Shown piece after piece: positions 9,560-28,882 of a stretch of 33,640 bases of DNA. Where the stretch lies: assembly GCA_051382335.1 (NCBI GenBank), contig JBBCAX010000174.1:1-33640 (forward strand). Reading direction: 5' to 3'. Position 1 is the stretch's first letter; every line of letters begins with the position of its first letter. This DNA comes from Deltaproteobacteria bacterium TL4 (GTDB lineage Bacteria > SAR324 > NAC60-12). The translations under genes were made by a program, and so were the position numbers. A model generated the notes under the pieces. That model was not told the DNA's origin. It ran no database searches and saw only the letters and a program-made list of their open reading frames with translations.

Positions 9560-9599
9560 ATAAAACCATAAAAAATGTTTAAAAAGCTCTTGAAAATGA

Positions 9600-12710: not shown

Positions 12711-13936
12711 TTGCCCTCTTTTTGCTCACGTTTTTTTCTGGAAACCTGTTCAGAAGATGATTCCAACGCGGAATCTTGCGCAGGTAGAATGATGTCAGAT
12801 CCATCTTGCAAGAGATGATGCCCCAGCGTCACCACCTGTCCCGATAATTTCGGCGCGAGAACTTCGGTGAAAAGGCCTTGCACAATCCCGAGCCTGACTG
12901 GCATGAATTTAGCTTTTTTTGCGTTCAAATCCGCCTCAAAAACGCCCTTGACCTCGTTTCTTTCCACTATCGCCTTCGTAGGCACCACCGTGGTATTGGC
13001 ATGTTCATCAAATTGAATCCGCACATGGACAAACATTCCCGGTTTCAGCCAGTTTTTGGGATTGGGAACTTCAATTTCCACGCGGGCTTGCCGAGAAGTT
13101 TCCTGAATCAGGGGGGCGATCCGAATCACTTTTCCTTGAAATATCTTTTCTTCCGCGACATTGTTCACGACGCTTACCGGTTGCTTCAGTTGCAGTTTGA
13201 AATAATCCCGTTCGGTGACATTAATCACCGCAATCACTGAGGAGATGTCTAAAATAGAAACGATGGGTGAGTTGGCTGTGAGTAAAGCGCCTTCATCCAC
13301 GAACCTTTCTCCGATGACCCGTTCCGTTTGGGGTTCCTCCCATAACGCATGAATACGGGTATACGACAAACGGATTTTTGTGGCTTCCAAGGCCGCTTGT
13401 TTTTCTGTGACCTGAGCCTGACCCACCCGGTAATCGGCCTGTTGTTTGCTATACTGGGCTTCCGCCAATTCCAGTTCAGAAGCAGAAACCACTTTTTTGG
13501 TTCTTAATTCCCGGATACGTTCCAATTCCCGCTGAGCCAGTTCCAAAGCGTTACGAGTGGTTTCCAGGTTGGCGTTGCTCACCTCCAGGGTGGCTTGAGC
13601 CTGATGCTGCTGCTGGATGTATTCCGCATCGTCCAATTGGGCAATGAGTTGATTGGCTTTGATCTTGTCTCCGATGTCAAACCATAATTTTTCCAGGCGT
13701 CCCGCAATTTTAGGCGCGATCACAACCTTCGATTTCGCAAACAAAGTCCCCGTGAATTCGCCCATATCCTGAAGGGTTCTGGTCTCAACCGGTGCAATTT
13801 CGACAGCCACCGCGGCAGGCCCCCGGTTACGGGAAGAACCGGAATTTTTTGAAGTGAAGGCGCTCTGATAAATTTGCCATCCCAAAAGACCGAGTAACGC
13901 CACTCCACTCACACTCATAATTATTCTTTTTTTCAT
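12707..13936 (-). CDS. RND efflux periplasmic adaptor (membrane fusion protein)
   Basis: N-terminal anchor, PKIAGRL...GDKIKANQLIAQLD, helical hairpin, LKPGMF, VPTKAI. ATGA overlap with the permease. Confidence 0.94.
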   Translation of the reverse strand: MKKRIIMSVSGVALLGLLGWQIYQSAFTSKNSGSSRNRGPAAVAVEIAPVETRTLQDMGEFTGTLFAKSKVVIAPKIAGRLEKLWFDIGDKIKANQLIAQLDDAEYIQQQHQAQATLEVSNANLETTRNALELAQRELERIRELRTKKVVSASELELAEAQYSKQQADYRVGQAQVTEKQAALEATKIRLSYTRIHALWEEPQTERVIGERFVDEGALLTANSPIVSILDISSVIAVINVTERDYFKLQLKQPVSVVNNVAEEKIFQGKVIRIAPLIQETSRQARVEIEVPNPKNWLKPGMFVHVRIQFDEHANTTVVPTKAIVERNEVKGVFEADLNAKKAKFMPVRLGIVQGLFTEVLAPKLSGQVVTLGHHLLQDGSDIILPAQDSALESSSEQVSRKKREQKEGK

Positions 13937-14258: not shown

Positions 14259-15005
14259 TCATTTATTGAGAAAGATGGTGGGATGCTGTTGGATTTGAGG
14301 AATCACCGTGTTTAAATAGTCGGTAAATTGGCAGACTTTGATTTTCCCACCACCTACAGGAAATTGTTGGATTTGATTTCCTTTAATAAGCCAGTCTTCA
14401 ATTTTTGACAAATAGAGTTTCGGATAAGTTTTCAAATCACGAACATACATTTTGAAAATTTTTTCAGGCATAGGTTCTTTCGTATCATTGGAAACAGGAA
14501 AGTCTTTCCAATAACGGTAAGGGACGGTCACCCGTTCTTCCGCAAAATGAACCAACGAAATGGAGTCCATTGACGCTCCCAAAAGAAGAATTTTTGCCTT
14601 ATTTTTCAGCATCACACCAAAAGGGCCCTTTTCGTCAAAACCTGAGAGGGTGTCCGCAGAACAGATCTCAACAGCCAATTTGCCGATGGCTGCGACGCGA
14701 TGGATGGGGTGAGTGCTTTTTTGGCAGTTATCCAAGGTTTGAAGGTACTCGGACAAAGGACCCATTGGAAGTCTCAAGCCCATAAAAAACTCGTAATCAT
14801 ATCTGAAGGCAGGAACCACAATGGTCCCTTCAGGGCCAAGACATTCCCTCAAAGTTTCCAGGATCCAATAGGGAATTGCCTTAAACGCAACCCCTTCGAT
14901 GGCACCTAATAAAAATAAGGCGCTATGGACCATAACCACGTCACCTTTTGATAAACCTGTTGCGTGAAAAGCCTGTTTCAGTGTGTTTAAGGAATAGTGT
15001 TTCAT
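14259..15005 (-). CDS. AAC(3)/YokD-family N-acyltransferase
   Basis: GLSKGDVVMVHSAL, GPEGTIVVPAF, STHPIHRVAAIG, ILLLGA, SLVHFAEE, VPYRYWK. Confidence 0.9.
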   Translation of the reverse strand: MKHYSLNTLKQAFHATGLSKGDVVMVHSALFLLGAIEGVAFKAIPYWILETLRECLGPEGTIVVPAFRYDYEFFMGLRLPMGPLSEYLQTLDNCQKSTHPIHRVAAIGKLAVEICSADTLSGFDEKGPFGVMLKNKAKILLLGASMDSISLVHFAEERVTVPYRYWKDFPVSNDTKEPMPEKIFKMYVRDLKTYPKLYLSKIEDWLIKGNQIQQFPVGGGKIKVCQFTDYLNTVIPQIQQHPTIFLNK

Positions 15006-15022
15006 GAGAGAGACCTTTTTTT

Positions 15023-15952
15023 TTAATAAAATCTTTCACCCGTTTGAATATTTAAACGCTCCGCGATTTGTGGACCTGAGAGTGTTTCCTGAGGATCAAC
15101 CACGATTTTTGTGATCAGTAGGCTTTCCTTCTGCCCGGTGGCAACCGTAACACCTGACGCGTTGACCGACAAAACCATACCAGGCGTTTGACTCGGAAGC
15201 GTTGAACTTTTTGCTTTTTGCAGGCTGAGCTTCAGATCACGAAATCGAGTCATCGGAGTATAAGTCGGTGATTGAAAAGGTGAATAATCCGCTGCTCGTA
15301 TAAAATCAAGAATTTGTTGGGCCGAAGCCTCCCAAGGAATGGTTCCGTCCAAGGCCTCACGATGATAGTAGATTTTTCGAAGACTTAAATCTTGTTGGAT
15401 CTGAGGAGGCGATTGGCCTTGCGCGATCTCACTCAAGGCCTTTACCACCAATTCTGTGCCGGCATTAAGACATTTGATAAAGAGCGACAAGCCCGTGTCT
15501 TTGGGAGAAACGGGGAATTCTTTAAGGTACGCAATAGGGCCCGCATCCACTTTGGCGTCCATCCAGTGTAACGTTGCGGCAAAGGTTTTTTCTCCATTAC
15601 GAATAGCCCATTGATGGGTATGCAGTCCCGCATATTCCGGGAGTTTTCCTGGATGCATGTTTAAGGCACCATACAAGGGAATGGCCAATAAGGACGCGGG
15701 AAAAATGAAAGTGGAATTGACTGAAAAAAGCCAATCGGGAGCGTGTTCTTTCAGTATCTCAATCCCGACCTCCGTCTTTAGCAGATTGATATCCCTGAAC
15801 TCCAAGCCCATGAGCTGAGCCTGGTTTTGGATCTCCCGACTGTGAGGGCTGTCCGTGTACAAAGCCTGTAGGTTTAAGTGTTCCATCTTTGCGACAGCAT
15901 GCAGAAGTTTTTGAACAGGTGTGGAGCTGCCAATGAGAATGATGTTATTCAT
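15023..15952 (-). CDS. 10-formyl-THF-dependent formyltransferase (Fmt/ArnA-N-like)
   Basis: ALNMHPGKLPEYAG, WAIRNGE, TLHWMDAKVDAGPI (Asn/His/Asp catalytic residues). Likely start is ATG 15952 (MNNIILIG), overlapping the carrier-protein stop by 8 bp. Confidence 0.9.
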   Translation of the reverse strand: MNNIILIGSSTPVQKLLHAVAKMEHLNLQALYTDSPHSREIQNQAQLMGLEFRDINLLKTEVGIEILKEHAPDWLFSVNSTFIFPASLLAIPLYGALNMHPGKLPEYAGLHTHQWAIRNGEKTFAATLHWMDAKVDAGPIAYLKEFPVSPKDTGLSLFIKCLNAGTELVVKALSEIAQGQSPPQIQQDLSLRKIYYHREALDGTIPWEASAQQILDFIRAADYSPFQSPTYTPMTRFRDLKLSLQKAKSSTLPSQTPGMVLSVNASGVTVATGQKESLLITKIVVDPQETLSGPQIAERLNIQTGERFY

Positions 15953-16220
15953 GGACGTTTGATGCCGATTGTGCTGTGTGAAAAGCGAGTCCTTTGGGGG
16001 TTGTAAACTCGGTGGGGTCCAGTTCACTGAAGTCAACTTCGAGCGCAAATTCCGTTTCAATCACAGCCAGTAGTTCTAAAAATTCGAGAGAGTTTAAAAG
16101 ACCTGAATTGATCAAAGCAGAGTTCTCCTTGATTTTCTCTTGTGTCACGCCTCTCTCTTGAGTCATGTCTTCGATTTTTCGTAAAATAAAATTTTTAATG
16201 CGTTCTTCCAGGTTATCCAT
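15945..16220 (-). CDS. Acyl/aminoacyl carrier protein (DltC-like)
   Basis: 91 aa, acidic. LINSGLLNSLEFLELLAVIETEF carries the phosphopantetheine Ser in 'NSL'. Confidence 0.88.
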   Translation of the reverse strand: MDNLEERIKNFILRKIEDMTQERGVTQEKIKENSALINSGLLNSLEFLELLAVIETEFALEVDFSELDPTEFTTPKGLAFHTAQSASNVHE

Positions 16221-16221
16221 G

Positions 16222-17802
16222 CTAAAACTCTTCCAGAATCTTCATCAACTGAGATCGATCAATTTTGCCATTCACATTAAGGGGCATTTCATGAATAAAA
16301 TATATTCGTTGAGGAACCATATATTCGGGCAATCGCTGCTTGCATTGTTGGATCAGCGTTCTTTCATCCGCTGCTGTTTTTTCTCCTATAAAGGCCACAA
16401 GGGCCTCCACGGATCCCTCTGATTTTTTTGGCACAGAGGCAATTAAATCACATCCTGTCAGATTTCTCAATACATGATCCACTTCCTGTAGCTCCACACG
16501 ATGTCCTCGGATTTGTACCTGATCATCGAGTCTACCCAAATAATAAAGACAACCATCGGCACCTTGCTTGACTAAATCTCCTGTTCGGTACCAGAGGGCG
16601 TCTTTCCTGTCAGCAAGTGTGATGAATTTACTGCTATTTTGCTCGACATTATTCAGATAGCCCCTGGAAATTTGTGTTCCGGACAAACAGAGTTCACCGA
16701 CTTCTCCAACCTGTACCTCCTTACGGTTTGAAGCAATCACACAACCGTGTTGACTTTCAAAAATCCAGCCTATCGGAACAATGCCATTGAGACAGGATGC
16801 CTGTGAAGCCTCCGTCCAAGGAAAACGGGTGATCGCGATGGTCGCTTCCGTCGGCCCATAAAGATTATCGATTTTAGAATGAAACGCTGCTTGTTGCCAG
16901 GCTTGAACTGAGGACACCGGCAGGGCCTCACCGCAAAAGAAGCTATATCGTAATGTTGGAAAGGCGTTGGGCTTCAACATCTTCATTTTCGCCATAAACA
17001 TCACTACGGAAGGCACAGAAAACCAGAGCGTCAGTTGCTTTTCCCTGATAAATTTTGCTGGCCCCATCAGTGAGGCTTGCGGCACAACACATAAACACGC
17101 ACCCCGCTCCCAACAGATGAACAGATCATGAACACTTAAATCAAAAGTGAGATCAAACATTTGGGAACACCGATCATTTTCATGAATCGGATACTGCTCG
17201 CAAATAGTCTCAAGATAGGCCCTCACATTCTGGTGACTTATAGGAACGCCTTTAGGGATGCCTGTGCTTCCAGACGTAAAGAGCAAATACGCGATATCAC
17301 TGGGCTCGACCTGCGGAGAACTCAGCGTGCTGGTTCCTTGAGACAGCAGGGATTGACTCAGAAACAGATGTTCTGGAAAGCGTTGCGGGAGATCTTTTAA
17401 ATCGGAAGTTTCAGGAAAAATGAGGGTTTGTGGGTTTTCAAGCAAAGGTAACAGCTCTTCAAGCAAGGACACGGCCTCAGTACCGACAATGAGGATCTGG
17501 CTTTCCGCTAAAGCCAGCATTTTCGAAGTACGCTGTATGGGAAAATTCGGATTTAAAGGAGTATATCCTTTTCCCGCAGCAAGGATCGCCAAGATCCCTG
17601 CGTAAGCGGTCAGGCTTCGTGACGCCAAAATGGAAATCAAAGGTTGGGCTTCCCGTTCATATTCAAGAAGAGTCGCTGTAAGCGTTCCGACACAAGCACT
17701 CAATTCCTGATAGGTCCATTGCTGATCTTTAATTTCCAAGGCGCGATGATTGGGAAAGCGGAGGGTTGTGTTGATGAATCCATCGATAAGACAATTTGAC
17801 AT
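16222..17802 (-). CDS. Stand-alone amino acid adenylation enzyme (DltA-like)
   Basis: Core motifs AYLLFTSGSTGIPKG, FDLSV, FFCGE, NLYGPTE, GELCLSG...GYL, YRTGD, GRLDDQVQIRGHRVEL, LPEYMVP, NGKIDR. Confidence 0.94.
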   Translation of the reverse strand: MSNCLIDGFINTTLRFPNHRALEIKDQQWTYQELSACVGTLTATLLEYEREAQPLISILASRSLTAYAGILAILAAGKGYTPLNPNFPIQRTSKMLALAESQILIVGTEAVSLLEELLPLLENPQTLIFPETSDLKDLPQRFPEHLFLSQSLLSQGTSTLSSPQVEPSDIAYLLFTSGSTGIPKGVPISHQNVRAYLETICEQYPIHENDRCSQMFDLTFDLSVHDLFICWERGACLCVVPQASLMGPAKFIREKQLTLWFSVPSVVMFMAKMKMLKPNAFPTLRYSFFCGEALPVSSVQAWQQAAFHSKIDNLYGPTEATIAITRFPWTEASQASCLNGIVPIGWIFESQHGCVIASNRKEVQVGEVGELCLSGTQISRGYLNNVEQNSSKFITLADRKDALWYRTGDLVKQGADGCLYYLGRLDDQVQIRGHRVELQEVDHVLRNLTGCDLIASVPKKSEGSVEALVAFIGEKTAADERTLIQQCKQRLPEYMVPQRIYFIHEMPLNVNGKIDRSQLMKILEEF

Positions 17803-17806
17803 AGTA

Positions 17807-19444
17807 CTAAACCTGGACTTGAATCAATTTATCACCAAGATACTCAGAAATTCCCAAGGCAAGGGAATTAAGCAGTTTTTGTTCTTTTTCGTCTTTCTTG
17901 ATGAAACTATCATAGATTTCAAGCATCCCATACAAATTGGCTTCCTTGACGGTCAGGGAACTGATTTTATCAAGATCCTGTTGTTTTAATCCATCTTTTA
18001 ATGACAGTTCAATCAAGCCTGCAGGTCTTATGCTTCCGTTAGAATAACATGCGACAGCAACCGATTTTCCTGTAACATAGTTTGCGGTGGGTACGGTGGC
18101 AATCTGTTCTGCCCAAGCCGCATAACCTTTGGTCGCCTGGAGCGCTGCGACAAGTCCTGACTGCATCAGAGGCAAATAAGTAATTTGCCAAAATCCGCCA
18201 AAGCAACGGTACGCACGGGCAAACGCTACTACCATAAAGGTGGTGAATAAGCCTGGGATGATTTTTTTGTTTCGTAAGCCTTCAATCAGTTTTTCTGGTG
18301 TGAAGGGAAATTTGAATTCATGCCTGGAATCATCCATGCCCTTAAGGAACAGATCGCCCTGTTCCTTGACCAATACCAGATGGATTCTTCTGCCTTTTGC
18401 ATCAATTCCCCAAAAGAAGACTGTTCCGCTTTTTTCCAACAGGGCTTGTCTTTCTTTTTCAGATAACGCTGAATTCAGCAAGGCCTTCAATTTGCTGATA
18501 TTCCAGCAAAGGCCCTCTTTTTGATCCACAATATCCAGCAATTGGGTTCTTAGATCCGGATCAAAGAAAATTCGGTAAGCCAAAGAATCCTGGTTTCGAA
18601 GATCCTCCTCCAAAAGCATTCCCACAATTTTTTCCATTTCAAGGTACACCATTTCAGGCATCAAGGCGCGGACAGGATTGGAAAACAAACGCTTCCATAA
18701 TCGATGATTCAAGATAACCGACTGATCCGAGTAACTGTCTTGAGTTAAAACATCATTGCTAAGGTATTCTTCATTCAGGATATGGTTTAAAACATGAGCT
18801 TCCTGCGCGGAAATGTCTTGTTGCCTGGATAAGTATTTAACTCTGGAAAGCGCGTGTTGAACCATGTCTCGGTCAAAAGGTGCGGCAGTACAGACTAAGG
18901 TGTGTTTGTTTTTATCAGGATAAACATTAATTTTGAGAGAACTGCCAAACGTGTCAGCAAGATCCTTGTTTTCTTTTTTACGGGATAAAATAATGCCTTT
19001 AGGATAACTTGGATTGTTCAAAGAAATAGAACCATAGGCAAAAACCGGAATCACCCGATTTTGTAAAGTAGAGTAACCAGCGTTTGAAACTTCCGCTAAA
19101 GAATAAATTAAATCACTTTGCACAAAAAGTGAGAGAAAGTTGGGACCATGATGATTGGCTGTTAAAATTGAGGGCGTCGTCTCCAGTCGTTTTTTAAGTG
19201 CGTCTGATGTTTGTTCTCCAAGCAAACGTTTCGCATAGACACAAGCAACCCTAATTAAATCATCCCTTGGTTGAACGGGTAGTGCTGTGTTATGACTAAA
19301 GGTCTGAATATATTCACCTAAGGTAAGATGCCCATATTCATTCAGAATTTTAGAAACTCCCGGAAGATGGTTTTCCACAGTAGTGAGTACTTTTTGAATA
19401 GGCGAATGATTGCTGAAAATACCACGTTCCGTTGACATAGACAT
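17807..19444 (-). CDS. Hypothetical protein (545 aa), first gene of the adenylation operon
   Basis: Long ORF 4 bp upstream of the A-domain gene. No signal peptide or obvious TM segment. Conserved-looking motifs ILTANHHGP, SGTVFFWG and GGFWQITYL. No family recognised. Confidence 0.8.
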   Translation of the reverse strand: MSMSTERGIFSNHSPIQKVLTTVENHLPGVSKILNEYGHLTLGEYIQTFSHNTALPVQPRDDLIRVACVYAKRLLGEQTSDALKKRLETTPSILTANHHGPNFLSLFVQSDLIYSLAEVSNAGYSTLQNRVIPVFAYGSISLNNPSYPKGIILSRKKENKDLADTFGSSLKINVYPDKNKHTLVCTAAPFDRDMVQHALSRVKYLSRQQDISAQEAHVLNHILNEEYLSNDVLTQDSYSDQSVILNHRLWKRLFSNPVRALMPEMVYLEMEKIVGMLLEEDLRNQDSLAYRIFFDPDLRTQLLDIVDQKEGLCWNISKLKALLNSALSEKERQALLEKSGTVFFWGIDAKGRRIHLVLVKEQGDLFLKGMDDSRHEFKFPFTPEKLIEGLRNKKIIPGLFTTFMVVAFARAYRCFGGFWQITYLPLMQSGLVAALQATKGYAAWAEQIATVPTANYVTGKSVAVACYSNGSIRPAGLIELSLKDGLKQQDLDKISSLTVKEANLYGMLEIYDSFIKKDEKEQKLLNSLALGISEYLGDKLIQVQV

Positions 19445-19549: not shown

Positions 19550-19572
19550 TGGGAAGTCCAGTAGACTTCCCA
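19550..19572 (-). terminator. Possible terminator hairpin after the channel gene
   Basis: 9-bp stem TGGGAAGTC/GACTTCCCA with a 5-nt loop, 20 nt past the stop codon. The U-tract is poor. Confidence 0.4.
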
Positions 19573-19592: not shown

Positions 19593-22500
19593 TTACGCGT
19601 TATCAATTTGTTTCAAAATAAAACTTTTGATATTTTGTAAATCCTGCTTTGCGATACGTGCTTTACGATCTCCTTGCGGACTGCTCAAAACTTCGCAGAG
19701 AGCATTGACGACACCCAGATCATTTTTTAAATAGCCTGAAATCAAGTCTTGTGGAATTTCCAGAACCTTCGTGTTCGTATCGGCAACCGCGGTTTCAGTT
19801 CGGACTTCTCCGGTCAACATCGACATTTCTCCAAAGGCGCTGCCTGCCCCCAAACGGCTGACTTCAACCGATTCGCCATTCTCCAACTCCACTGAAAACA
19901 CGATGATCCCTTCCTGAATGATGAACATGGAATTTCCCATCTCTCCCTGTTTGAATAAAAACTCGCCGGCTTTGATGAATCGGGACTTCAATTGTTGTCC
20001 TAAGGCTTGTTTCTGAGTGTCAGAAAATGGATTGAATAACGCAACTTCATTCAACAGGTTTTGAGGGCTGGTTCCCATCAACTCAGGTTCTTTTCCGGGT
20101 TGATGGAAATAAACATCGGAGCGCTTCGTCGCAAATTTAATACCGGCTCTTCTAAAAGAATGCCACACTTTCCCCCATGCGACATTTTTCAAATAATTAC
20201 TGCGGGCGTAATTTCTTGAGGAAAAGATTAAATAATACTTTGCGGACCATTCATTGATTTCAGCAAGGACAGCCACGGGACGAGGTACTTTTAAAATGTC
20301 AGGCTCTTCCGCCGAATCCAAAATAGCATCCAACAAGATTTTCTTAACATAAAGGGGATCTTCCGCGGGATCGACGTAGATTGTGATCAAGGCAGAATAC
20401 AGGTCCTCAGGAAAATTAAAATTCAAGATCACCGCACCCGAAGCGAGACCGTTAGGAATACACATCATACATCCGCTTCGATCAATCACACGAATGGAGC
20501 GCCAGGTCATTTCGATGACACGTCCCTCTTTACTGCCTGCGATCTGAATCCAGTCTCCCACCCGGAAGGGGCGTTCGATATTCAGGACAATGCCACTGAA
20601 TAAATTTGAAATATTGGCCTGAATGGCCAAACCGATAATCATCACTAATAAGCCGGAAGACGCAAGTACACTGGTTAATTGCTGGTTGAACACAAAAGCG
20701 ATAACGCCAAAGATCGCCAGTAAGTAGATAATGAACTTCGTGGAGTTGCGAACCACACTGGGAACTTTTAACGCCGTTCTTTTTTCAAGAGGAACCCACA
20801 AGAAGTGCTCCACGAATTGATTGATAAAAAAGGCCGGCACGATCCACCACAGTATATCAAAAATCATGATTAAGCGGCTACTGTCAAAATCTGCCATGTT
20901 TTTTGACAAGGTTTTGGCCAAGCCTATTTCCGCGGCAAAAAGCATTAGCGAGATCAGCACAATATTCAACAACCATATTTTTCGTGAGATTGCGTCAATC
21001 GCTGGTTTTTTCTGCGCAAGTAATAACCTTAGCACTTTTGCTGTGGGTAACAGCGAAAGTGCGTAATCGAGTTTTTTCATTTTATTCGGAAAAAGTGTAA
21101 CTACCAGCAGCAGAACACAGATGCCAAAAATAGTGTTTGCGAGGTTCGACGGAATCAGACCTCTCAGGGTAAAGCCACTCCTTTTGATGACGATCCCTAC
21201 ATTAATCTGTGAATAATTGACGATCCCATTTTGGACATTGATGAAATTAGGATTTCCTAAAATGGCTTTAGTCGCCATGTTTTGGAAATACCAGGCTTCA
21301 CGAATATTCCAGCCCGTCGTAGGACTCAAGACCTGCATCGAATTAAGTTTGGTTGCCAAACTGACGTCATTCATCAACCCCATTCCCAAGACATCTCCTA
21401 CAAAAACCAGAGAATTACGCGTGCGTCTTCGGTGGTGCCAACTCAAGGACAGGATATGCTCTCCCAACCCGCGGTTGGTAGCCAGGATATCCATCTTAAA
21501 ATTCCCCTTGACGTGATAAAGCTTATAATGGAAGCCTCTGCTCAGTTGTTCAATGACAGGGTCTTTGAGTTGAATCGATTCTAAAGCATTTGAAAATTCG
21601 ATATCCTGAACATTGATATCATCTCGATAACGGAACCAAATATGAAAATCCATAGAAAAGCTGAGATTGTTGAAATCAATATTATCTATTTTGCTAACTT
21701 CAATTCCGGAATAAACAATGTTGGTACGATAAAGAGGAATATCATCCATAAATACAATCCGTTTTGATTTGATGGCCTCTTCCAGGTTCGGAATCTCACT
21801 CAAGACCTGGGTACTTTGCAATTGGACATAGGAGGAGACAATATTGTTATTTTTAAACACTCCAAGAGCGATGGGTTTTAAGGTATCACCTTTTTCGTCA
21901 AAATAGGTGAGTCCTGTTAGCCCCATGATTCCATCAGCGGGTTGAATCAAGTTCGCCAGGAAATCCCTGATTCGTTTGCGATCTTCAACCAGGTTTGCGG
22001 CTTCCCCTGTGATACCGGTTCGTTTGATGGCTTCAATTAAAATCAGGGCACATTCATAAGAGTAAACGGAACGCCAATCGGGAGATTCATTGAAAAGAGC
22101 CTCGTATTCTACAATAAACGCTCTCAGTTCCTCGCCTGCTGTATCAAAAATGAGAGGAGAAGTGATGTAGATATCATTAGTATAGAATCCCGGATAATTT
22201 CTTTCACGGGGAAATCCAACGAAAAAGTCATTGAAGGCTTTGGAGGCCATTGCCGAAGGAACAATGAATCTAATATCCTGAGTTTTATCACGAAAACGCT
22301 GGATCAACATGGCCGCCTCTTTGGCATGTGTCGCAAGAAAGATAATACCTGGCTCTTTGATGGCGAGGATTTCTGAAACAACCTGATCCAGATTTTTTGC
22401 CAAGTCTTTATGCGCGACCTCAAACTCTCTGCTAACTTGTATTTTGCCTCCGAGACTTTGGAAATGTTCCTCAAAAACCTCAGCCAAGCCACGACCATAA

Positions 22501-23435
22501 CTCAGATCCTCATGAATCACGATGGCCTTGTTAAATTCAAGAACCTTACTCGTAAAATTTGCTATAAAACGTCCTTCTTGAAGATCATTGGAAATAGTTC
22601 GGAAATACCAACTGTTGTCTTTGGTTACATCAACATGCGTTGAAGTTGGAGTGATCGCGGGAATGCCTCGTTGTCTGTAGATCTTCCCCGCACTGAGGGA
22701 GGGATCACTGAAATTGTGGCCAATCACCGCAACAGCGACACTGTGTTCCACAACATCAACGGCCTTTTCTTGAGCGAGTTGTTTATCATTTTGATCATCA
22801 AACACCTTTAAAATAACCCTCTTTCCGTTGATCCCTCCCTCTCTGTTGACTTTATTAAGGTATAATTGCGCCCCCTGCATCATGGCCCTTCCATTGGCTT
22901 TCGAATCTCCAGTCAGCGGCCCAACCAACGCCAAGCGAAAGGCCTGCTCTTGAAGCTGAAAATAATAATAGAAGCCGCCTCCCACCGCAGATCCGAGGCA
23001 GATCAAGATAAACCAAAACCACCTGAGCAATTTTTTCTGTTGTTTGCGCAAGGCGTCTGTGGTTTTTTTCTCAACGACTTGCTGCGCGATTTCTATCCCT
23101 TCCTCTAAGGTCTCTACTTTTTTAAAATTTGTGAAAATTCCTGAGATGTTTTTCTGTTCATCAAGATGTAACGGATAAACAATGATCGGTTGGTCATCAA
23201 ACCAGATCAGTAATTCCAGCATCTCTCCAATCAGGCGTGGAGTTTCGTCATGCACCAGATGGGTATTGGAAAAATTAATCACGATTTTATCAGGGGTTTC
23301 TTCTTCAAAAGCCTTGGTCCAACTCTCCGTGTCAAACTCGGGTTCCGGTGTTGGCTGATTCAAAACATTCACAATAAAAATACGATACAGTTCGTTGGTT
23401 TGTTTATGAAATTTTTTTGTGATTTTATTATACAT
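19593..23435 (-). CDS. Multidomain MscS-family channel: STAS-like + TM + LIV-type periplasmic binding domain + pLGIC-like extracellular domain + MscS + cNMP-binding domain
   Basis: PBP1: LALVGPLTG, GGINGKRV, DDQND, WYFRT. pLGIC-like: VYSGIEVSKIDNID...FSMDFHIWFRY...YSQINVGIVIKR. MscS: GLAIQANISNLFSGI...ERPFRVGDWI, TWRS, IPN. CNBD: GEFLFKQGE, LGAGSAFGEMSMLTGEVRT. Confidence 0.9.
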   Translation of the reverse strand: MYNKITKKFHKQTNELYRIFIVNVLNQPTPEPEFDTESWTKAFEEETPDKIVINFSNTHLVHDETPRLIGEMLELLIWFDDQPIIVYPLHLDEQKNISGIFTNFKKVETLEEGIEIAQQVVEKKTTDALRKQQKKLLRWFWFILICLGSAVGGGFYYYFQLQEQAFRLALVGPLTGDSKANGRAMMQGAQLYLNKVNREGGINGKRVILKVFDDQNDKQLAQEKAVDVVEHSVAVAVIGHNFSDPSLSAGKIYRQRGIPAITPTSTHVDVTKDNSWYFRTISNDLQEGRFIANFTSKVLEFNKAIVIHEDLSYGRGLAEVFEEHFQSLGGKIQVSREFEVAHKDLAKNLDQVVSEILAIKEPGIIFLATHAKEAAMLIQRFRDKTQDIRFIVPSAMASKAFNDFFVGFPRERNYPGFYTNDIYITSPLIFDTAGEELRAFIVEYEALFNESPDWRSVYSYECALILIEAIKRTGITGEAANLVEDRKRIRDFLANLIQPADGIMGLTGLTYFDEKGDTLKPIALGVFKNNNIVSSYVQLQSTQVLSEIPNLEEAIKSKRIVFMDDIPLYRTNIVYSGIEVSKIDNIDFNNLSFSMDFHIWFRYRDDINVQDIEFSNALESIQLKDPVIEQLSRGFHYKLYHVKGNFKMDILATNRGLGEHILSLSWHHRRRTRNSLVFVGDVLGMGLMNDVSLATKLNSMQVLSPTTGWNIREAWYFQNMATKAILGNPNFINVQNGIVNYSQINVGIVIKRSGFTLRGLIPSNLANTIFGICVLLLVVTLFPNKMKKLDYALSLLPTAKVLRLLLAQKKPAIDAISRKIWLLNIVLISLMLFAAEIGLAKTLSKNMADFDSSRLIMIFDILWWIVPAFFINQFVEHFLWVPLEKRTALKVPSVVRNSTKFIIYLLAIFGVIAFVFNQQLTSVLASSGLLVMIIGLAIQANISNLFSGIVLNIERPFRVGDWIQIAGSKEGRVIEMTWRSIRVIDRSGCMMCIPNGLASGAVILNFNFPEDLYSALITIYVDPAEDPLYVKKILLDAILDSAEEPDILKVPRPVAVLAEINEWSAKYYLIFSSRNYARSNYLKNVAWGKVWHSFRRAGIKFATKRSDVYFHQPGKEPELMGTSPQNLLNEVALFNPFSDTQKQALGQQLKSRFIKAGEFLFKQGEMGNSMFIIQEGIIVFSVELENGESVEVSRLGAGSAFGEMSMLTGEVRTETAVADTNTKVLEIPQDLISGYLKNDLGVVNALCEVLSSPQGDRKARIAKQDLQNIKSFILKQIDNA

Positions 23436-23491: not shown

Positions 23492-25756
23492 TTAAGCCGA
23501 GGGCTTATCCTTACGTTTGAAAAAAAATCTGGCTACAGACACCCAGCGATGTTGTTTTTTTAAGGCCAGGTTTACATGTTCTTGAGAAACGTGTCCCTGT
23601 TCCACCAGTGTTTCACCGATAGGTTTTGGATTTCGCTGTTCCGCTAGTGCTTTCCATAAAACATCCCTGTCGATCAGTCCCTGATCTACCAAGATTTGTC
23701 CAATAGGTTGCTTCTGTTTTTTGATCCATTTGTCTATGTCTCCCTGCTGAACCAGACCTTGTTCCACTAACAAGACCTCCACAGGAGTTTCCTTAAACAG
23801 GAGCGCTTTCTTTAAGGCACTTCGGGTCAGCAATCCTTGATCTATTAACAGTTGTCCCGTTTTTCTGTTTTGAAGATCCAAGGCTCCTTGGAGAACGTCC
23901 GGGTCCAACTCACCTTGTTTGACCAGGATTTGGCCTATCTTGGGAATAGTAATCCTGAATTTGCTCAGTTTTGTGTTTAAGTACCCTTGAGCAGGACTCA
24001 TAAATACCCCCATCACCACTGAAAAAAATATTTTGAAAAAGACAATTCCGGAAGCAAAGGTCGCAATCAACGAATACAGACCCACCTGGGTATTGAAATA
24101 GCTAAAAATGACGGCAACTACAATTCCGGATAATTTATTGGAGACTTTATCTGAAACCCCCAAGCCTCGCAATATGCCAGCAATGACCACCAAAAGAGAT
24201 AAAAATCCAAGCTGAGCAACATAAAAATACCAACTTTCATACCAGGGAGGTTTTATTTTAAAAGAAAAATCGCTCACTCGACTTATTCGGCCATCAGCCT
24301 TTTTTGCCCGGACATGAAAGACATAATCGCCCCAGTACAAGTTAGTAAATTCTCTGTAGGTACGATCGGACCATTTAGACCACTCGGTATCAAACCCATC
24401 CAGGTATGTTTGAAATTGAACGGGTTCCTTAACATCATAGTAAGTTGACGTAAATATAAACCGCAGCGCATTATCTGCAAAAGCAAGTTTTTGGTAGGTC
24501 AACTCCGATTCTTCCACAGATTGGATACCACCCCGTTTTTTAAATAAGGCTCCCGAAAAAATCAACGTATCATCCTTTGATCTTTCAACTCGACGGATTA
24601 AAACGTTAAATAAACGATCGGTACTTTCGAAATTGATGGTCCTGATATTAAATTTCTGTAATTGACTCGCGGTAATGAGCGCAATCCCGTGACTCAAACT
24701 AAACCATAAATTTCCGTTATAATCGTTATAGACATGGAACGCATCATGATTGTTTAAAAGTTCCGCTTTCTTGAAATGAAAGAGGATCTCCCCGTTATGA
24801 TCGATAATGAAGGTTCCTTTTTGGATCGTGTTGAGTAAAAATTGATTTTCATTCAAGGCAAGGCTGCTCGCCACAACGATACTTTTATAAAACTCAAGAT
24901 TTCTATAAGCGATTGGGGTAAAATCCCCCCTGGCTGAAAGGGACGGACCTTCCGGTGGCATTTTCTCTAAAAGCACAGAAGGATCTAAAAGTTCTGCTTT
25001 TTGTCCTAAAAAATACTCTTCAAATTTTGTACTTTCCTGTTGTTGTTTTTTTTCTGTAGGAGAACCGGGATCATAAACCCAGAGTCCGTTACTGCGCGTA
25101 ATGATCAACAGTTTATAATCACCGTAAGGCAGCATTTGATAGGCCCTGAAAAAATCACCACCTGGAATGGATTCTAACTCGTTATTCACCAGTTTGACCA
25201 GTCCTCGTTCTCCCTCAAACAGATACAGATCCCGTTTGTTGTAGACTGACTCATAAAAATACGTTTGAGTTTCGATTGTATTAAAATATTGATCAATCAC
25301 ATTATAAATAAAAACACGTTTTTCAGTAAGAAAAATGAGGCCATCCGCAATCACATAAATTTTTATAACTTCTTGAGTGAAATCCCGATCCCTTTCGGCA
25401 AGTTGAGGTTTCAAGGAGACATACTGCATCACGCCACGTTCATCGGGACTCAAATAGCCCAGTTCGCCTGTACCTCCTACATAAACACGTCCATCAACAT
25501 TGGTCGCAATGCTCCGGACTCCTGAATAATTAGGGAGCTTGATTAAATGCCAACTTTGTCCATCAAATTCAAGCACGCCATCCTGATTCGCGAAATACAT
25601 CACCCCCCGGAGATCCTGCGTCGCTTCACGGTTAAGAGGGGCGGCTTGATACATTGAGGGGGTAAAGAGCTGAACCTCAGGATTCGAATTTCCCTGTGCT
25701 GGTACTGTGGTACTAAAACCAAAGATCAGCAGCAGTAAATAAAGCAAAATATTCAT
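23492..25756 (-). CDS. Membrane sensor-like protein: beta-propeller repeats + Y_Y_Y domain + about 3 TM + MshEN-like repeats
   Basis: Signal peptide. QDLRGVMYFANQDGVLEFDG, GRVYVG, DYNGNLWF (regulator propeller). YLDGFDTEWSKW...FTNLYWGDYVFHVRA...IKPPWY (Y_Y_Y). C-terminal xIGxxLVxQGxx...LxxAL repeats. Confidence 0.88.
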   Translation of the reverse strand: MNILLYLLLLIFGFSTTVPAQGNSNPEVQLFTPSMYQAAPLNREATQDLRGVMYFANQDGVLEFDGQSWHLIKLPNYSGVRSIATNVDGRVYVGGTGELGYLSPDERGVMQYVSLKPQLAERDRDFTQEVIKIYVIADGLIFLTEKRVFIYNVIDQYFNTIETQTYFYESVYNKRDLYLFEGERGLVKLVNNELESIPGGDFFRAYQMLPYGDYKLLIITRSNGLWVYDPGSPTEKKQQQESTKFEEYFLGQKAELLDPSVLLEKMPPEGPSLSARGDFTPIAYRNLEFYKSIVVASSLALNENQFLLNTIQKGTFIIDHNGEILFHFKKAELLNNHDAFHVYNDYNGNLWFSLSHGIALITASQLQKFNIRTINFESTDRLFNVLIRRVERSKDDTLIFSGALFKKRGGIQSVEESELTYQKLAFADNALRFIFTSTYYDVKEPVQFQTYLDGFDTEWSKWSDRTYREFTNLYWGDYVFHVRAKKADGRISRVSDFSFKIKPPWYESWYFYVAQLGFLSLLVVIAGILRGLGVSDKVSNKLSGIVVAVIFSYFNTQVGLYSLIATFASGIVFFKIFFSVVMGVFMSPAQGYLNTKLSKFRITIPKIGQILVKQGELDPDVLQGALDLQNRKTGQLLIDQGLLTRSALKKALLFKETPVEVLLVEQGLVQQGDIDKWIKKQKQPIGQILVDQGLIDRDVLWKALAEQRNPKPIGETLVEQGHVSQEHVNLALKKQHRWVSVARFFFKRKDKPSA

Positions 25757-25795: not shown

Positions 25796-28700
25796 TTATT
25801 TGACTTCATATTGGAGTATGAGCTCATGCACATTTTCAACCCAGTCATTTGTAATAACTTTCAACTTAACCAGCTCTCCCCGCTTAAAACCGGTTATCGG
25901 TTGGCGATACAAATTTTTTGTGCCATCGTTGATCTGATAAAATACATCTTTAATGCCAATATGCTGATCTTGGACAGAGATATAAATAAACGTATTTGTA
26001 GAGATCTCTAAGACGTTTGCTTTGCCGGAGGGATGCGGTGTCCGATTGTAACTGATTGTAATTTCAGGAGGATTCGCATCCACAAAAAAAGACGTTGTCT
26101 TGGAGGTTTCTTTATTTTTCACGCTATCCACGGCTAAATATTCCAGTGTGTAATCTCCAGACTTTTTAATAGAAAAAGGGTTGGAGTAATTCACAAATTG
26201 TCGATCATATTTATACAGAATTTTTTCAACGCCCGCATTACTGTCAGAGGCCACTAATCTAATTTGAGTCTGGCCATTGAGATACAGCTTGTTGTTATTG
26301 AGATATTGTACGCCCTCAAATTGATGATTCGTCTTTGGTGGAAGCGTATCGGTATAAAATTTGATGGTTTGGATTGGAGTCTGATTTTCTACAATATCCG
26401 TGCTATAAAAGGCGATAGAGTGAGGTCCCTCGTCATCAGGTAAAGGAATTATCGATTGATAGGGGACAAAAGGAGCTTGGTCCACTCGGTACAAAAGCGA
26501 TTTCAACTCGGTTTCCCGTTCTGTGGCCCGCAACATCATTTTACTTTTGGTGGAAAGATAAAGCTGCTCTTTCCTGATAAATTGATTTCCAATGAGGTTA
26601 GAGACCAGTTCCGGAGGGGTGTGGTCCAGAGCGAATCGCATCGAACGAAGCTCTTCCTGATTTCCCACATTATCTACGGCGTAATAAGACAGGATGTGCT
26701 TCCCCTCGCTCAAGGCACCCAATTCTTTTGCTCCTAACGGACCGGAATAAATTTGCTTTTCCCCTTGATCAAAAAAATAATAGAGGCGTTGTACTCCCGA
26801 TAAACCATCTCGCGAGGATAGAATGATTTTTGATTTAGAGGATAAAACTTTTCCAAAAAAAGGAGCTTCCACCGCATAATTCGATTTGGGAGGAGTCACA
26901 TCGACAGTGAACTGAAGCTGGTGTATCTCCTCTGCATTTCCAACATAATCCACTGAGTAATATTGAACGATGTAGTCTTTTTCATTGAAAAACTGCTTTA
27001 TAGGAGACTGGTAGGGCGCAAAGACTGAACCATTAATTGAGAACAAAACCTTCATCACTCCTGAATTAATCCCTTCCTGTTTATCGTCAGCACTGAGACT
27101 CAGGACCAGTCCATCACTATAAAAAATTTGTTTGGTGGTCACATATTTCTTTGCTACTGAAAGGGTTTCTTCTGTCCTTGGAGGAATAGCATCAATAGTG
27201 ACCTGAGATTCATATTTTGAGGCAGCGGCACTCGCCTTGATTTTATTTTTTCCATGCTGATTAAAAAAGAGAGGTTGAGGATCTTTCTCTTTAGGATCAT
27301 AGGCCAACAAAAAACTGGGTGCGCCCTCCTTAGGGGAATCCGAAATCCTGATAAAAAATTCCAGGCCTCTTGCCCCAATCAATCCATGCTTCTCGCTGAA
27401 GTACCACCGATTATCCAATTTGTCCTGAGCTGCGGTCTTTTTCGATTTTTTTAAGGTATTATCCACAATCACCCGCAGGGTTTTTTTGTTCTCCTGATTA
27501 TGCACATAATCCGTCGCATAATACACCATTTCATATTGTCCATCTTTTTGAAAACCCAAGGTGTCTTTATAACTTTGACATCCCGCTCCGTTCATGCAGA
27601 TCTGTATCTCCTTGACGCCAGATTCCATATCTACAGAAGTTAAGGAGATTTGAGTTTGAGAGTCAATCACCATATCGGCCCCGTTGCGGTAAGCGGTACC
27701 GTTCATGCTATATTCCGTCGAAGGCGGAGTTAAGTCCACAAAGGCTCTGAGCTTTTTTTCCTGGCTGTTCTTTACCTGATCAATGGCTGAGTAATTAAAA
27801 GGAATCATCCCTTCTGTTTGAGGCAAAAGGAAAGGCTTGGCATAAAGAACGGGCGGTTGTCCCTCAAACTGATAATAAACTTTATCAACCCCTGCTTTGT
27901 TGTCGCTGGCATGAATCATAAATTCAGTTTGAGGAGAAACATATAAAACATTATTGTAGTAGTAATGTATGCCTTCAACCGAAACAGATATCTCGGGAGG
28001 CGAAAGATCATGAAAGAAATCAAATTGTTTGAGGGTTTCCTGATTGCGAACCTTATCTTCCGCATAGTATGACAGCGTATGCTTGCCTTCCGCTAATTCC
28101 TCAACCAAAATTGCTTCACGGTAGGTTTGTTTGGGATTTTGATCCAGTTGATAACTGATCTGTGACACCCCCGACAAATTATCACCACTTTTTAATGCGA
28201 TTTGAGTTTGGGAGGCCAAGATATTCCCCGTATAGATGCCACTCAACACAACCTGTGTTGCGGGGGCAGTGACATCCACGTCAAACTCAAGCACGTTGTC
28301 TCTTTCGACATTTCCCACATGGTCGATCGCATAGTAATAGGCCACAAAATGATGATCTGAACTATAATCAGGAACGTATTCCGAAAACAGTTGATAGGGT
28401 TTTTGATCTAATGAAATGTAAACGTATTCAACTCCTGAAAGCGCATCTTCCGTTTTTAGTGCGACCTGGAGTCCTCTTCCAAAAATCAGTTGCTGATTCG
28501 CGCGATATTGAGGCGCATTAGAAAAGAGAATTTGTGTTTTTGGTGCCGTTCCATCAACATTAAGGGTATAATTTAACGCTTCAACCAGAGGATTTTTTAT
28601 CACATTCGCCCCTTCGGGCAAGAACAAGGGCACTGGCTTTTTGACAGGATCCACCTTATGGAGTGTCTGCACTTGTGATGGATTGGGAGTGCTGGAAATA

Positions 28701-28882
28701 TGCAAAAAAACGGGCAAACTTTCAGGAATATAAAGTTTCCCCTCAGGACTGGTATAATAATGTTTGTCGTGAGGGTGCTTCAATGGCGTCACCTTCGTTT
28801 TTGCAAAGACAGACGCTTCAAAAAAACCCCAATTTAAAAATAGAATGACAATAAAAATAATGTTGGTAATCAGGGTTGACAT
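25796..28882 (-). CDS. Secreted OmpL47-type Ig-like repeat protein (1028 aa)
   Basis: Signal peptide. About nine ~90-aa repeats of D.TPP.T...D..SGV..I.Y..D...Y......G.H.L.YYA.D.VGN.E. Confidence 0.85.
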   Translation of the reverse strand: MSTLITNIIFIVILFLNWGFFEASVFAKTKVTPLKHPHDKHYYTSPEGKLYIPESLPVFLHISSTPNPSQVQTLHKVDPVKKPVPLFLPEGANVIKNPLVEALNYTLNVDGTAPKTQILFSNAPQYRANQQLIFGRGLQVALKTEDALSGVEYVYISLDQKPYQLFSEYVPDYSSDHHFVAYYYAIDHVGNVERDNVLEFDVDVTAPATQVVLSGIYTGNILASQTQIALKSGDNLSGVSQISYQLDQNPKQTYREAILVEELAEGKHTLSYYAEDKVRNQETLKQFDFFHDLSPPEISVSVEGIHYYYNNVLYVSPQTEFMIHASDNKAGVDKVYYQFEGQPPVLYAKPFLLPQTEGMIPFNYSAIDQVKNSQEKKLRAFVDLTPPSTEYSMNGTAYRNGADMVIDSQTQISLTSVDMESGVKEIQICMNGAGCQSYKDTLGFQKDGQYEMVYYATDYVHNQENKKTLRVIVDNTLKKSKKTAAQDKLDNRWYFSEKHGLIGARGLEFFIRISDSPKEGAPSFLLAYDPKEKDPQPLFFNQHGKNKIKASAAASKYESQVTIDAIPPRTEETLSVAKKYVTTKQIFYSDGLVLSLSADDKQEGINSGVMKVLFSINGSVFAPYQSPIKQFFNEKDYIVQYYSVDYVGNAEEIHQLQFTVDVTPPKSNYAVEAPFFGKVLSSKSKIILSSRDGLSGVQRLYYFFDQGEKQIYSGPLGAKELGALSEGKHILSYYAVDNVGNQEELRSMRFALDHTPPELVSNLIGNQFIRKEQLYLSTKSKMMLRATERETELKSLLYRVDQAPFVPYQSIIPLPDDEGPHSIAFYSTDIVENQTPIQTIKFYTDTLPPKTNHQFEGVQYLNNNKLYLNGQTQIRLVASDSNAGVEKILYKYDRQFVNYSNPFSIKKSGDYTLEYLAVDSVKNKETSKTTSFFVDANPPEITISYNRTPHPSGKANVLEISTNTFIYISVQDQHIGIKDVFYQINDGTKNLYRQPITGFKRGELVKLKVITNDWVENVHELILQYEVK

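Follow-up and report, generated by a model that had tools for sequence, protein, structure and literature searches.

A candidate ligand- and cyclic-nucleotide-modulated MscS-type channel carrying the periplasmic half of a binding-protein-fused pentameric ligand-gated channel

A gene in the window (the whole 33,640-nucleotide stretch of DNA analysed here) raises the question of how parts of a periplasmic binding protein, a pentameric ligand-gated ion channel (pLGIC) and a mechanosensitive MscS channel came to lie on one polypeptide, and what such a protein might do. An earlier note on this DNA had described a single uninterrupted open reading frame (ORF) of 1280 aa, and this is what we find: the frame (P0001) lies on the minus strand, has a predicted ATG start and no internal stops, and GC content is flat along it. 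Every domain that the note had named was also recovered, including the hard-to-see pLGIC-type sandwich, by Pfam, PDB sequence matches, BLASTP, AF2 modelling and Foldseek (Table 1). Hydropathy gives six transmembrane (TM) peaks, at aa ~138-156, 762-785, 817-842, 853-876, 898-918 and 920-950, from which we place both the N-terminal domain and the C-terminus on the cytoplasmic side, with aa 160-760 in the periplasm; by Pfam and hydropathy, ~600 periplasmic residues stand before the TM bundle.

Table 1. Features of the ORF and its 3′ flank, in window coordinates.
Feature	Position	Strand	Evidence
Whole ORF P0001, 1280 aa + stop	19593..23435	minus	ATG start, internal stops absent
N-terminal cytoplasmic domain, aa 1-135	23031..23435	minus	match to P0002
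TM0 signal-anchor helix, aa ~136-158	22962..23030	minus	hydropathy peak
Type I (LIV-type) periplasmic binding-protein domain, aa 165-535	21831..22943	minus	Peripla_BP_6, 3hut, 3ip5
pLGIC-type extracellular beta-sandwich, aa 536-760	21156..21830	minus	BLASTP, AF2, Foldseek, structure comparison
Pro-loop tip position, aa 654-659	21459..21476	minus	R-G-L-G-E-H vs Y-P-F-D-x-Q in pLGICs
Five TM helices, aa 761-950, the last being MscS pore helix TM3	20586..21155	minus	hydropathy, YnaI match
MscS cytoplasmic beta and alpha-beta vestibule domains, aa 951-1115	20091..20585	minus	MS_channel_2nd, E. coli MscS alignment
Cyclic-nucleotide-binding domain, aa 1125-1250	19686..20063	minus	cNMP_binding, PKG/PKA matches, family consensus
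Terminator-like hairpin, 10-bp stem and T-rich tail	19550..19572	minus	consensus scan only

The periplasmic part begins with a binding-protein domain that Pfam recognises as Peripla_BP_6 (PF13458; aa 167-483, E 3.5e-33) and as ANF_receptor (PF01094; aa 187-518, E 1.7e-19), profile matches that support a two-lobe class I fold. Among PDB sequences it matches the LIV-type binding protein 3hut over 350 residues (E 3.2e-27 to 1.5e-26) and the Atu2422-type 3ip5 (E 4.5e-19). S243 and T266 align with positions 79 and 102 of the chain of 3ip5 (amino-acid-binding Atu2422), a Ser and a Thr which we take to bind the amino-acid backbone in alpha-amino-acid binding proteins; on such sequence grounds the periplasmic ligand is probably amino-acid-like. 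Across the family rows the Ser of position 79 is kept in 62 of 83 and the Thr of position 102 in 36 of 83, and this uneven conservation suggests that the ligand class may differ among family members.

The sandwich gave no match in a Pfam search. Using BLASTP, aa 168-759 aligned with P0083, a binding-protein-pLGIC with Neur_chan_LBD and Neur_chan_memb matches, at 31% identity over 607 columns (E 1e-96), in an alignment that runs unbroken from the binding domain through to the pre-M1 boundary of this true binding-protein-fused pLGIC. An AF2 model of aa 536-790 (pLDDT 91.9) returned at least 500 Foldseek matches at E<=0.001, and all 33 of the matches listed are AChBP, nAChR or GABA-A extracellular domains (E ~3e-9, probability 1.0); a second structure comparison (VIA) gave Z 15.3 and an rmsd of 3.0-3.4 A over ~160 residues, with GABA-A, ELIC, sTeLIC and GLIC. 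By alignment and by model, then, the sandwich has the fold of a pLGIC extracellular domain. The four-TM pore domain of pLGICs is absent, as PF02932 (Neur_chan_memb) has no match in the ORF at E<=1 and the C-terminal half is MscS; [F/Y]PxD is likewise missing from the tip of the query's beta6-beta7 loop.

Beyond the sandwich lies a channel of MscS type. Pfam finds MS_channel_2nd at aa 942-1006 (E 1.1e-13), NCBIfam gives a partial MscK match, and PDB sequence matches include YnaI (aa 830-1111) and E. coli MscS (aa 904-1112), the pore and vestibule aligning with residues 80-279 (of 286) of the latter (E 1.7e-16). As is characteristic of the MscS family (PF00924), a pore-lining TM3 is followed by the beta-domain, and TM3 is nearly invariant across the family of the query. 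M932 and L936 align with L105 and L109 of E. coli MscS, which we take to be its hydrophobic gate, and so keep both gate positions hydrophobic, while four other pore-helix residues are bulkier than those of E. coli MscS in the alignment (A102L, G104V, A106I and G113A). The MscS and YnaI entries listed from the PDB have chain counts that are multiples of 7.

At the C-terminus, Pfam places cNMP_binding at aa 1152-1237 (E 1.7e-20), and the cNMP domains of PKG/PKA are PDB sequence matches at aa 1126-1238. The phosphate-binding cassette reads FGEMSMLTGEVRTETAVA, in which G-E and R-T are present (the G-E ... R-T/S residues presumably having phosphate-binding roles in cNMP domains), with R-T-E where the family consensus is R-t-a. 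An MscS core and, at the C-terminus, a cNMP-binding domain (CNBD) therefore lie on one chain, the combination that marks bCNG channels. Stand-alone MscS+CNBD proteins of 470-515 aa have five hydrophobic peaks; four of the six compared align from aa 801-818 to aa 1250-1268 of the query (E 1e-41 to 1e-57), alignment of the other two begins at aa 884 and 922, and identity of these five-TM proteins with aa ~801-1268 is 24-30%. Judged by homology, the N-terminal half of a binding-protein-fused pLGIC has here been joined to a whole five-TM channel of bCNG type.

The N-terminal domain is common only to P0002 (aa 41-135 against 3-97, 26% identity, E 2e-10); it has no Pfam match at E<=10, and a search of its own genome found no paralogue. 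The AF2 model made with this sole homologue was unusable (pLDDT 51.9), and its score of 0.81 against STAS clusters (ESM Atlas features) is at noise level, being reached by shuffled proteins one-third of the time. Most homologues have an N-terminal hydrophobic segment equivalent to, and aligned with, TM0. At the other end of the gene, the terminator-like hairpin sits 21 nt past the stop codon. In the loci of relatives, a class III cyclase is the next gene in two of the four examined. The downstream gene here (17807-19444) was considered as a cyclase of this kind and rejected, showing no similarity and no Pfam match at E<=10. The search for a conserved operon partner found none. In the same genome, a draft of 445 contigs with 28 class III cyclase domains above the Pfam cut-off, P0001 is the sole match longer than one domain, nine others being confined to the binding-protein or the cNMP part.

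How widespread this design is was asked of a library of cluster representatives drawn from a large number of public genomes and metagenomes, in which 739 match the sandwich at E<=1e-3. Among the best 150 of the 739, an MscS core is present in 116 (62 of them with a CNBD), and a pLGIC membrane domain in 19, the other 15 being fragmentary or having neither; nearly all members keep the binding-protein domain and the sandwich together at full length. Named genomes also encode the collinear architecture, those of Desulfonema ishimotonii, Azospirillum, Magnetospirillum and Beggiatoa being examples. Full-length homologues are thus abundant; the earlier note had offered their absence, or a misassembly, as grounds for dropping its claim, and misassembly of the core architecture is ruled out by the homologue evidence. 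Nearer the source, the gene is present in 3 of 41 genomes of close relatives and 12 of 88 genomes of the phylum, and a search of genome contigs with the single protein narrowed 32 candidate stretches to one locus, which matches the CNBD in part.

The history of the join can be read from the sandwich. In a FastTree tree of 215 sandwiches the MscS- and pLGIC-fused labels require one change (support 99), and in an IQ-TREE tree of 80 rows a branch with an SH-aLRT of 100 parts the two kinds; on these trees the join of sandwich to MscS maps to a single branch in the sequences sampled. At the Pro-loop columns the pLGIC-fused relatives have P in 20 of 20 and D in 19 of 20, against P in 24 and D in 10 of 181 MscS-fused relatives, and the pre-M1 Arg is present in 19 of 20 against 19 of 181. 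The proline of [F/Y]PxD is given in the accessible part of PMC4795631 as the sole absolutely conserved pLGIC residue, with the Asp of the motif pairing with the pre-M1 Arg. Because the pLGIC-fused side keeps both Y-P-F-D-x-Q and this Arg, we take the swap to have run from pLGIC to MscS; by these residue counts the pLGIC coupling motifs are lost in the MscS-fused clade, after the join.

The family is large and its design turns up often among public sequences, yet our literature searches found no description of the architecture. Public records label its members ‘ABC transporter substrate-binding protein’ or ‘potassium efflux system protein’, names which lead channel researchers to miss these proteins. 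The earlier note had held that the two kinds of fusion are each known separately, and the literature agrees, as bCNG channels with an MscS core and CNBD appear in the portion of PMC13591265 available to us and pLGICs fused to a PBP-I domain in that of PMC549065. None of the papers listed by these searches describes, in its title or abstract, a fusion of MscS with a binding protein or with a domain of pLGICs, though the review by Malcolm and Maurer (2012) may mention MscS proteins fused to binding proteins: PMC4560390 cites it (15 MscS subfamilies) as including ‘ligand binding domains’.

We propose that the protein is probably an intact chimeric channel of the inner membrane, MscS-type, heptameric, and modulated by ligand and cNMP. 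Its periplasmic half would descend from binding-protein-fused pLGICs, in which a complete five-TM MscS channel with its C-terminal CNBD would have taken the place of the four-TM membrane domain on one occasion; a single replacement fits the one branch of the sandwich tree that parts the two kinds. We infer a conducting heptameric core, its pore gated at M932 and L936. The lobes of the binding protein would close on a periplasmic, probably amino-acid-like, ligand, and the rigid sandwich could relay this closure to the outermost of the TM helices, shifting the tension threshold or the open probability of the MscS gate. As the elements that couple extracellular and membrane domains in pLGICs are lost, this sandwich-driven movement of MscS helices is putative. 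Binding of cNMP below the cytoplasmic vestibule may bias the same gate from inside, and the lineage-specific N-domain may supply a third input. According to the review PMC13591265, bCNG channels gave E. coli no protection against downshock and it is not known what part cNMP plays in gating them, so the CNBD step is proposed by analogy.

Could the protein instead be an ordinary osmotic safety valve, opened by tension only, with periplasmic domains that serve as a scaffold (for spacing, cell-wall contact or localisation), a role that such large domains may also have in other relatives of MscS? Conservation within the family is highest at the pore helix and vestibule, and the pLGIC coupling motifs are gone, as such a valve would allow; yet binding domain and sandwich are retained jointly and at full length, the query keeps the putative backbone-binding positions of amino-acid binding proteins, a CNBD has been added in about half of the members (62 of the 116), and the downshock result on bCNG relatives points the other way. 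We consider a simple valve unlikely. The opposite simplification, that the MscS scaffold conducts nothing and acts as a receptor, transducing ligand binding in the periplasm to the CNBD, the N-domain or unknown partners, could draw on the bulkier pore residues and on the cyclases of the two relatives' loci. It is improbable, in our judgement, since the gate positions and the TM3b and vestibule motifs are almost invariant, as expected of a working pore, and no kinase, cyclase or other output domain is fused.

A further question is which half of the chimera would dictate its symmetry. The structural neighbours of the sandwich among the matches listed are all from pentameric assemblies, which could mean a pentamer, as in pLGICs, around a non-canonical five-fold pore of MscS type. 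Against this, the MscS, YnaI and chimera entries listed all have chain counts in multiples of seven, the protein has the heptamer-building vestibule domains in full, and it is the sandwich that has lost the motifs which fit a five-fold membrane domain; we would expect a pentamer in few outcomes. Hardly credible at all is an artefact in which misassembly or a read-through call ran together separate genes coding for a binding protein, part of a pLGIC and a bCNG channel: the draft state of the genome would permit one, but the same collinear architecture in 116 of the best 150 representatives, its recurrence in named genomes, the open 1280-codon frame and the junction of the N-domain, common to P0002, all speak for a real gene.

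Returning to the preferred reading of a heptameric, ligand- and cNMP-modulated channel, its boldest form is a possibility that we hold tentatively and would not bet on: that the sandwiches form a seven-membered ring on the MscS pore, the first non-pentameric assembly of this receptor domain, in a truly ligand-gated MscS channel where an amino-acid-like signal, tension and cNMP meet at one gate, with coupling achieved without the Pro-loop/pre-M1 interface. Even short of this, two channel superfamilies that are among the best studied, the five-fold Cys-loop/Pro-loop receptors and the seven-fold MscS valves, are joined on one natural polypeptide, in hundreds of sequence clusters. The family would show the extracellular domain of neurotransmitter-type receptors to be a portable sensor module, one that seems able to function, or at any rate to be retained by selection, in proteins that lack its native membrane domain and the one residue regarded as invariant. 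It opens to test how an extracellular domain signals ligand binding to a pore, whether the ring of that domain is able to change symmetry, and what bCNG-type MscS channels are for.

Among known systems, YnaI and MscK of E. coli have, as here, extra N-terminal TM helices outside the MscS core. Both are MscS paralogues, and MscK has a large periplasmic domain; in our protein two folds recognisable as ligand sensors make up the periplasmic part. Ionotropic glutamate receptors and GluR0 offer an analogy, with a clamshell binding-protein domain atop an unrelated pore module, and differ in their tetrameric P-loop pore, the arrangement of their binding-protein class and their intermediate domain. DeCLIC likewise stacks an accessory periplasmic domain on a pLGIC-type extracellular domain, but retains a membrane domain of pLGIC type and assembles as a pentamer, and the abstracts of PMC9897478 and PMC12664993 do not describe its N-terminal domain as a type-I binding protein. 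The bCNG channels (Caldwell 2010 and Malcolm 2012, as cited in the accessible part of PMC13591265) have the same MscS pore helix, vestibule and C-terminal cNMP-binding domain; they are described there with cytoplasmic regulation only and lack large periplasmic sensor domains, whereas the query adds ~760 N-terminal residues comprising N-domain, anchor helix, binding-protein domain and sandwich, and with them periplasmic sensors. Closest on the other side are the PBP-I-fused prokaryotic pLGICs of Tasneem, Iyer, Jakobsson and Aravind (2005; PMC549065, in whose accessible text ‘MscS’ occurs 0 times), where binding domain and sandwich are homologous and collinear with ours and share the W-F-R, D-x-x-G-M and G-x-P motifs of the query family; these channels keep the [F/Y]PxD Pro-loop and pre-M1 Arg that the MscS-fused clade has lost, and carry the four-TM Neur_chan_memb domain where our protein has an MscS channel instead.

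Sequence comparison, an AF2 model and a fold search, three independent lines of evidence, identify aa 536-760 of the 1280-aa query (P0001), a segment which has no Pfam or NCBIfam match, as the extracellular domain of a pentameric ligand-gated channel (pLGIC). By BLASTP, query residues 168-759 align without a break to residues 2-597 of P0083 (31% identity, E 1e-96), a homologue in which a binding-protein domain is joined to Neur_chan_LBD (3.5e-4) and Neur_chan_memb (1.7e-5), and whose membrane domain resembles that of GABA-A beta and glycine receptors (matches at ~1e-6). The AF2 model of aa 536-790 (pLDDT 91.9, pTM 0.83), built from an alignment led by the window fragment, with 79 further rows taken from the 82 hits P0002-P0083 (minus P0074-P0076), is a rigid beta-sandwich and then a TM helix, the outermost one, into which the sandwich runs straight. 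Foldseek returned at least 500 PDB matches at E<=0.001; among the 33 matches listed, all were AChBP, nAChR or GABA-A extracellular domains (E ~3e-9, probability 1.0). VIA structural re-alignment gave Z 15.3 and rmsd 3.0-3.4 A over ~160 residues to GABA-A, ELIC, sTeLIC, GLIC and nAChR, with Z of at least 8 for all 1000 chains re-aligned.

The binding-protein, MscS and cNMP-binding segments have recognisable relatives (see the table for Pfam matches). NCBIfam agrees with Pfam through sub-threshold LIV-binding-protein, MscS and MscK models and, among PDB sequences, the binding-protein part matches LIV-type binding proteins (3hut, 1.5e-26), aa 830-1111 match YnaI, aa 904-1112 match E. coli MscS (chain residues 75-279 of 286) and aa 1126-1238 match the cNMP domains of PKG and PKA. 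Hydropathy gives six TM peaks, one at ~138-156 and five between 762 and 950; as the MscS C-terminus is cytoplasmic, this places aa 1-135 in the cytoplasm and aa 160-760 in the periplasm. At aa ~786-813 (window ~21000-21080, minus strand) the query's cytoplasmic loop joining TM helices one and two of the five exceeds that of most members by ~24 residues, and the family alignment shows it partly longer in P0002, the homologue sharing the query's N-domain.

Alignments to the family and to E. coli MscS show the MscS pore and vestibule to be conserved: in the PDB sequence alignment M932 and L936 correspond to E. coli L105 and L109, which, from the MscS literature on residue roles, we take to be the gate positions, and Q112, N117 and G121 are retained, with Ala in place of G113. 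The phosphate-binding cassette of the cNMP-binding domain (CNBD) has G-E and R-T. The binding-protein domain, a periplasmic clamshell, belongs by sequence to the class that binds amino acids; its S243 and T266 correspond in the alignment to positions 79 and 102 of Atu2422 (3ip5), presumably ligand backbone binders. The protein has the sequence features of the MscS family and the bCNG architecture, an MscS core with a C-terminal CNBD. Judged on sequence, it is an MscS-family channel with a pLGIC-derived sensor and not a pLGIC. The earlier note's five-domain chimeric channel is borne out in its architecture, by the Pfam and PDB matches and the sandwich model and fold search, but its function we only infer, and the note's interpretation is partly supported.

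Features of the window, of the query and of two loci from relatives' genomes
Feature	Position	Strand	Remarks
ORF	19593..23435	minus	1280 aa, ATG start (ORF listing)
Terminator-like hairpin	19572..19550		after stop codon of the 1280-aa ORF
754-aa protein	23492-25756	minus	Y_Y_Y and weak DUF4388; directly upstream of channel gene
Large protein	25796-28882	minus	bacterial Ig-like domains; upstream of channel gene
Large protein	28984-30765	minus	bacterial Ig-like domains; upstream of channel gene
Downstream cluster	14259-19444	minus	545-aa protein, AMP-binding enzyme, formyltransferase-like, Antibiotic_NAT-family acetyltransferase
RND efflux set	8024-13936		beyond downstream cluster
Peripla_BP_6	aa 167-483		Pfam, 3.5e-33
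ANF_receptor	aa 187-518		Pfam
MS_channel_2nd	aa 942-1006		Pfam, 1.1e-13
cNMP_binding	aa 1152-1237		Pfam, 1.7e-20
Class III cyclase gene, locus L020	9822-11147	minus	
Class III cyclase gene, locus L021	10317-11969	plus	same strand as family member, 159 nt downstream

The single uninterrupted frame which the note had described was confirmed by the ORF listing and by a translation with no internal stop codon, and GC content is flat (~0.42) across the gene region. The window spans an entire contig, one of 445 that make up a draft genome of 6.59 Mb, in which the sole match longer than one domain is the gene itself, nine others covering the binding-protein or cNMP part only. After the ATG, codon 22 is a GTG and codon 25 a TTG, both in frame (window 23360-23375, minus strand, codons 21-25). 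Similarity to P0002 starts only at aa 41, which suggests that the real start could lie downstream of codon 1.

Two phylogenies separate the pLGIC-fused from the MscS-fused sandwiches. The sandwich alignment held 215 rows (181 MscS-fused, 20 pLGIC-fused and 14 unlabelled), 19 of the 234 proteins having been dropped because no sandwich span in them reached 180 aa. On the FastTree phylogeny the label changes once between MscS and pLGIC, the 20 pLGIC-fused rows and one unlabelled fragment being set apart by a branch whose length is 0.33 and support 99; IQ-TREE, run on 80 rows (all 20 pLGIC-fused, the query, P0002 and 58 random MscS-fused), reproduces this split with SH-aLRT 100. According to Jaiteh et al. 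2016 (PMC4795631), [F/Y]PxD is the most recognisable pLGIC signature, its Pro the only absolutely conserved pLGIC residue, and its Asp is linked by a salt bridge to the pre-M1 Arg at the interface of ECD and TMD. Our pLGIC-fused rows keep Y-P-F-D-x-Q (Y in 19, P in 20, F in 20, D in 19 and Q in 18 of 20) and the pre-M1 Arg (19 of 20), whereas among MscS-fused rows P is found in 24, D in 10 and the pre-M1 Arg in 19 of 181; the query has R-G-L-G-E-H at the Pro-loop. This pattern argues that the MscS-fused clade is the derived one, its interface motifs having been lost, as the aligned rows indicate, after it no longer had the membrane domain of a pLGIC. The sandwich motifs W-F-R, D-x-x-G-M and G-x-P are conserved in both clades.

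When shorter proteins were searched with aa 800-1250, many stand-alone MscS+CNBD proteins of 470-515 aa came up (named 'small-conductance mechanosensitive channel/CRP-like cAMP-binding protein' in their sources), ranked below matches of 38-45% identity that look like fragments of family members. Six stand-alones compared directly have ~five hydrophobic peaks; in four of them the alignment runs from query aa 801-818 to 1250-1268 (E 1e-41 to 1e-57), and in the other two it starts at aa 884 and 922. By this collinearity, together with the homology to binding-protein-fused pLGICs, the query joins the N-terminal half of such a pLGIC to a complete five-TM bCNG-type channel, the second of its two parents.

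The word-based homologue search gave 92 proteins: besides the query, 81 (P0002-P0082) have MS_channel, all but the fragment P0056 with binding-protein families as well; P0083 is the pLGIC form and nine are weak partial matches. Named sources include Beggiatoa, Leptospiraceae, Desulfonema ishimotonii, Desulfobacterales, Cloacimonetes, Magnetospirillum, Azospirillum and Burkholderiales, and the records are mostly called 'ABC transporter substrate-binding protein' or 'potassium efflux system protein'. In an exhaustive phmmer run with the sandwich as sole query, 739 of 1.84 billion cluster representatives match at E<=1e-3, of which 539 do so at <=1e-10 and 122 at <=1e-30. Local phmmer with P0001 segments and the P0083 membrane domain classified the best 150 of the 739, a sample biased towards the query, into 116 with an MscS segment (62 of those with a CNBD), 19 with a pLGIC membrane domain and 15 with neither, many of them short and likely fragments. 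Shorter members that lack the CNBD, such as the P0012 type, have ~1000 aa. In the query's GTDB family and order a match at E<=1e-20 is present in 3 of 41 genomes, counting the window's own, and these matches are only 23-32% identical; across the phylum 12 of 88 genomes (9 of 43 genera) have a match; the gene is thus patchy and without a close orthologue among the relatives searched. In one relative (G008:C11:45387-46415, locus L011) a sandwich-plus-TM match has one in-frame TAA within a 779-aa frame, and this copy may be broken, or two genes.

The N-domain occurs in two of the 234 proteins, the query and P0002. P0096 (1447 aa) has a different extension, of ~325 aa, ahead of its binding-protein domain, so N-terminal additions arose on more than one occasion. 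P0174, P0211 and P0217 (~1200 aa) carry SBP_bac_1/SBP_bac_8 (E 1e-23 to 1e-35) C-terminal to a binding-protein-sandwich-pLGIC arrangement and, if the gene calls are not fusions, are pLGICs flanked on either end by a binding-protein domain.

Upstream of the channel gene the gaps are 56 and 39 nt on the same strand, and these genes may be co-transcribed with it. The 545-aa protein of the downstream cluster has no Pfam match even at E<=10; the AMP-binding enzyme there is 'overlapping by 4 nt spacing'. At two of four relatives' loci (genomes G016 and G008) a class III adenylate/guanylate cyclase gene adjoins a CNBD-less family member, which may reflect a functional link to cNMP signalling; no cyclase neighbour was seen in the window. 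The query's own genome (G000) has 28 class III cyclase matches over the Pfam cut-off (contig positions C401:19155-19523, C96:45969-46295 and C296:1829-2179 are examples), and several CNBD matches lie within open frames of 1240-1290 aa, which makes the organism unusually rich in cNMP signalling.

We propose that the MscS part would build a heptamer, by analogy with the listed PDB entries for MscS and YnaI, whose chain counts are multiples of seven. Ligand would close the clamshell, a motion that the sandwich would pass on to the peripheral helices, thereby shifting the tension dependence of the gate, and cNMP would act on the vestibule from the cytoplasmic side. Against this scheme, the known pLGIC coupling interface is, from the alignment, gone from the query, and conservation of the ligand site is partial across the family. 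Also against it, a review of MscS-like channels published in September 2026 (PMC13591265) states that bCNG channels gave E. coli no downshock protection and that their cNMP gating is not understood.

That review mentions bCNG, and its text has no occurrence of 'periplasmic binding', 'ligand-gated', 'pentameric', 'substrate-binding' or 'Cys-loop'; Tasneem et al. 2005 (PMC549065) describe PBP-I-pLGIC fusions with no occurrence of MscS. Fifteen MscS subfamilies, including additions such as 'ligand binding domains', are noted in PMC4560390 (citing Malcolm and Maurer 2012), and a binding-protein-fused MscS may be listed among them; the literature searches listed no description of an MscS channel that bears a pLGIC-type domain. 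Compared with pLGICs, the query lacks two features that define them, a Pro-loop and a 4-TM domain, but shares the extracellular fold, and its family is a widespread, apparently unrecognised chimera between two superfamilies of channels that differ in symmetry.
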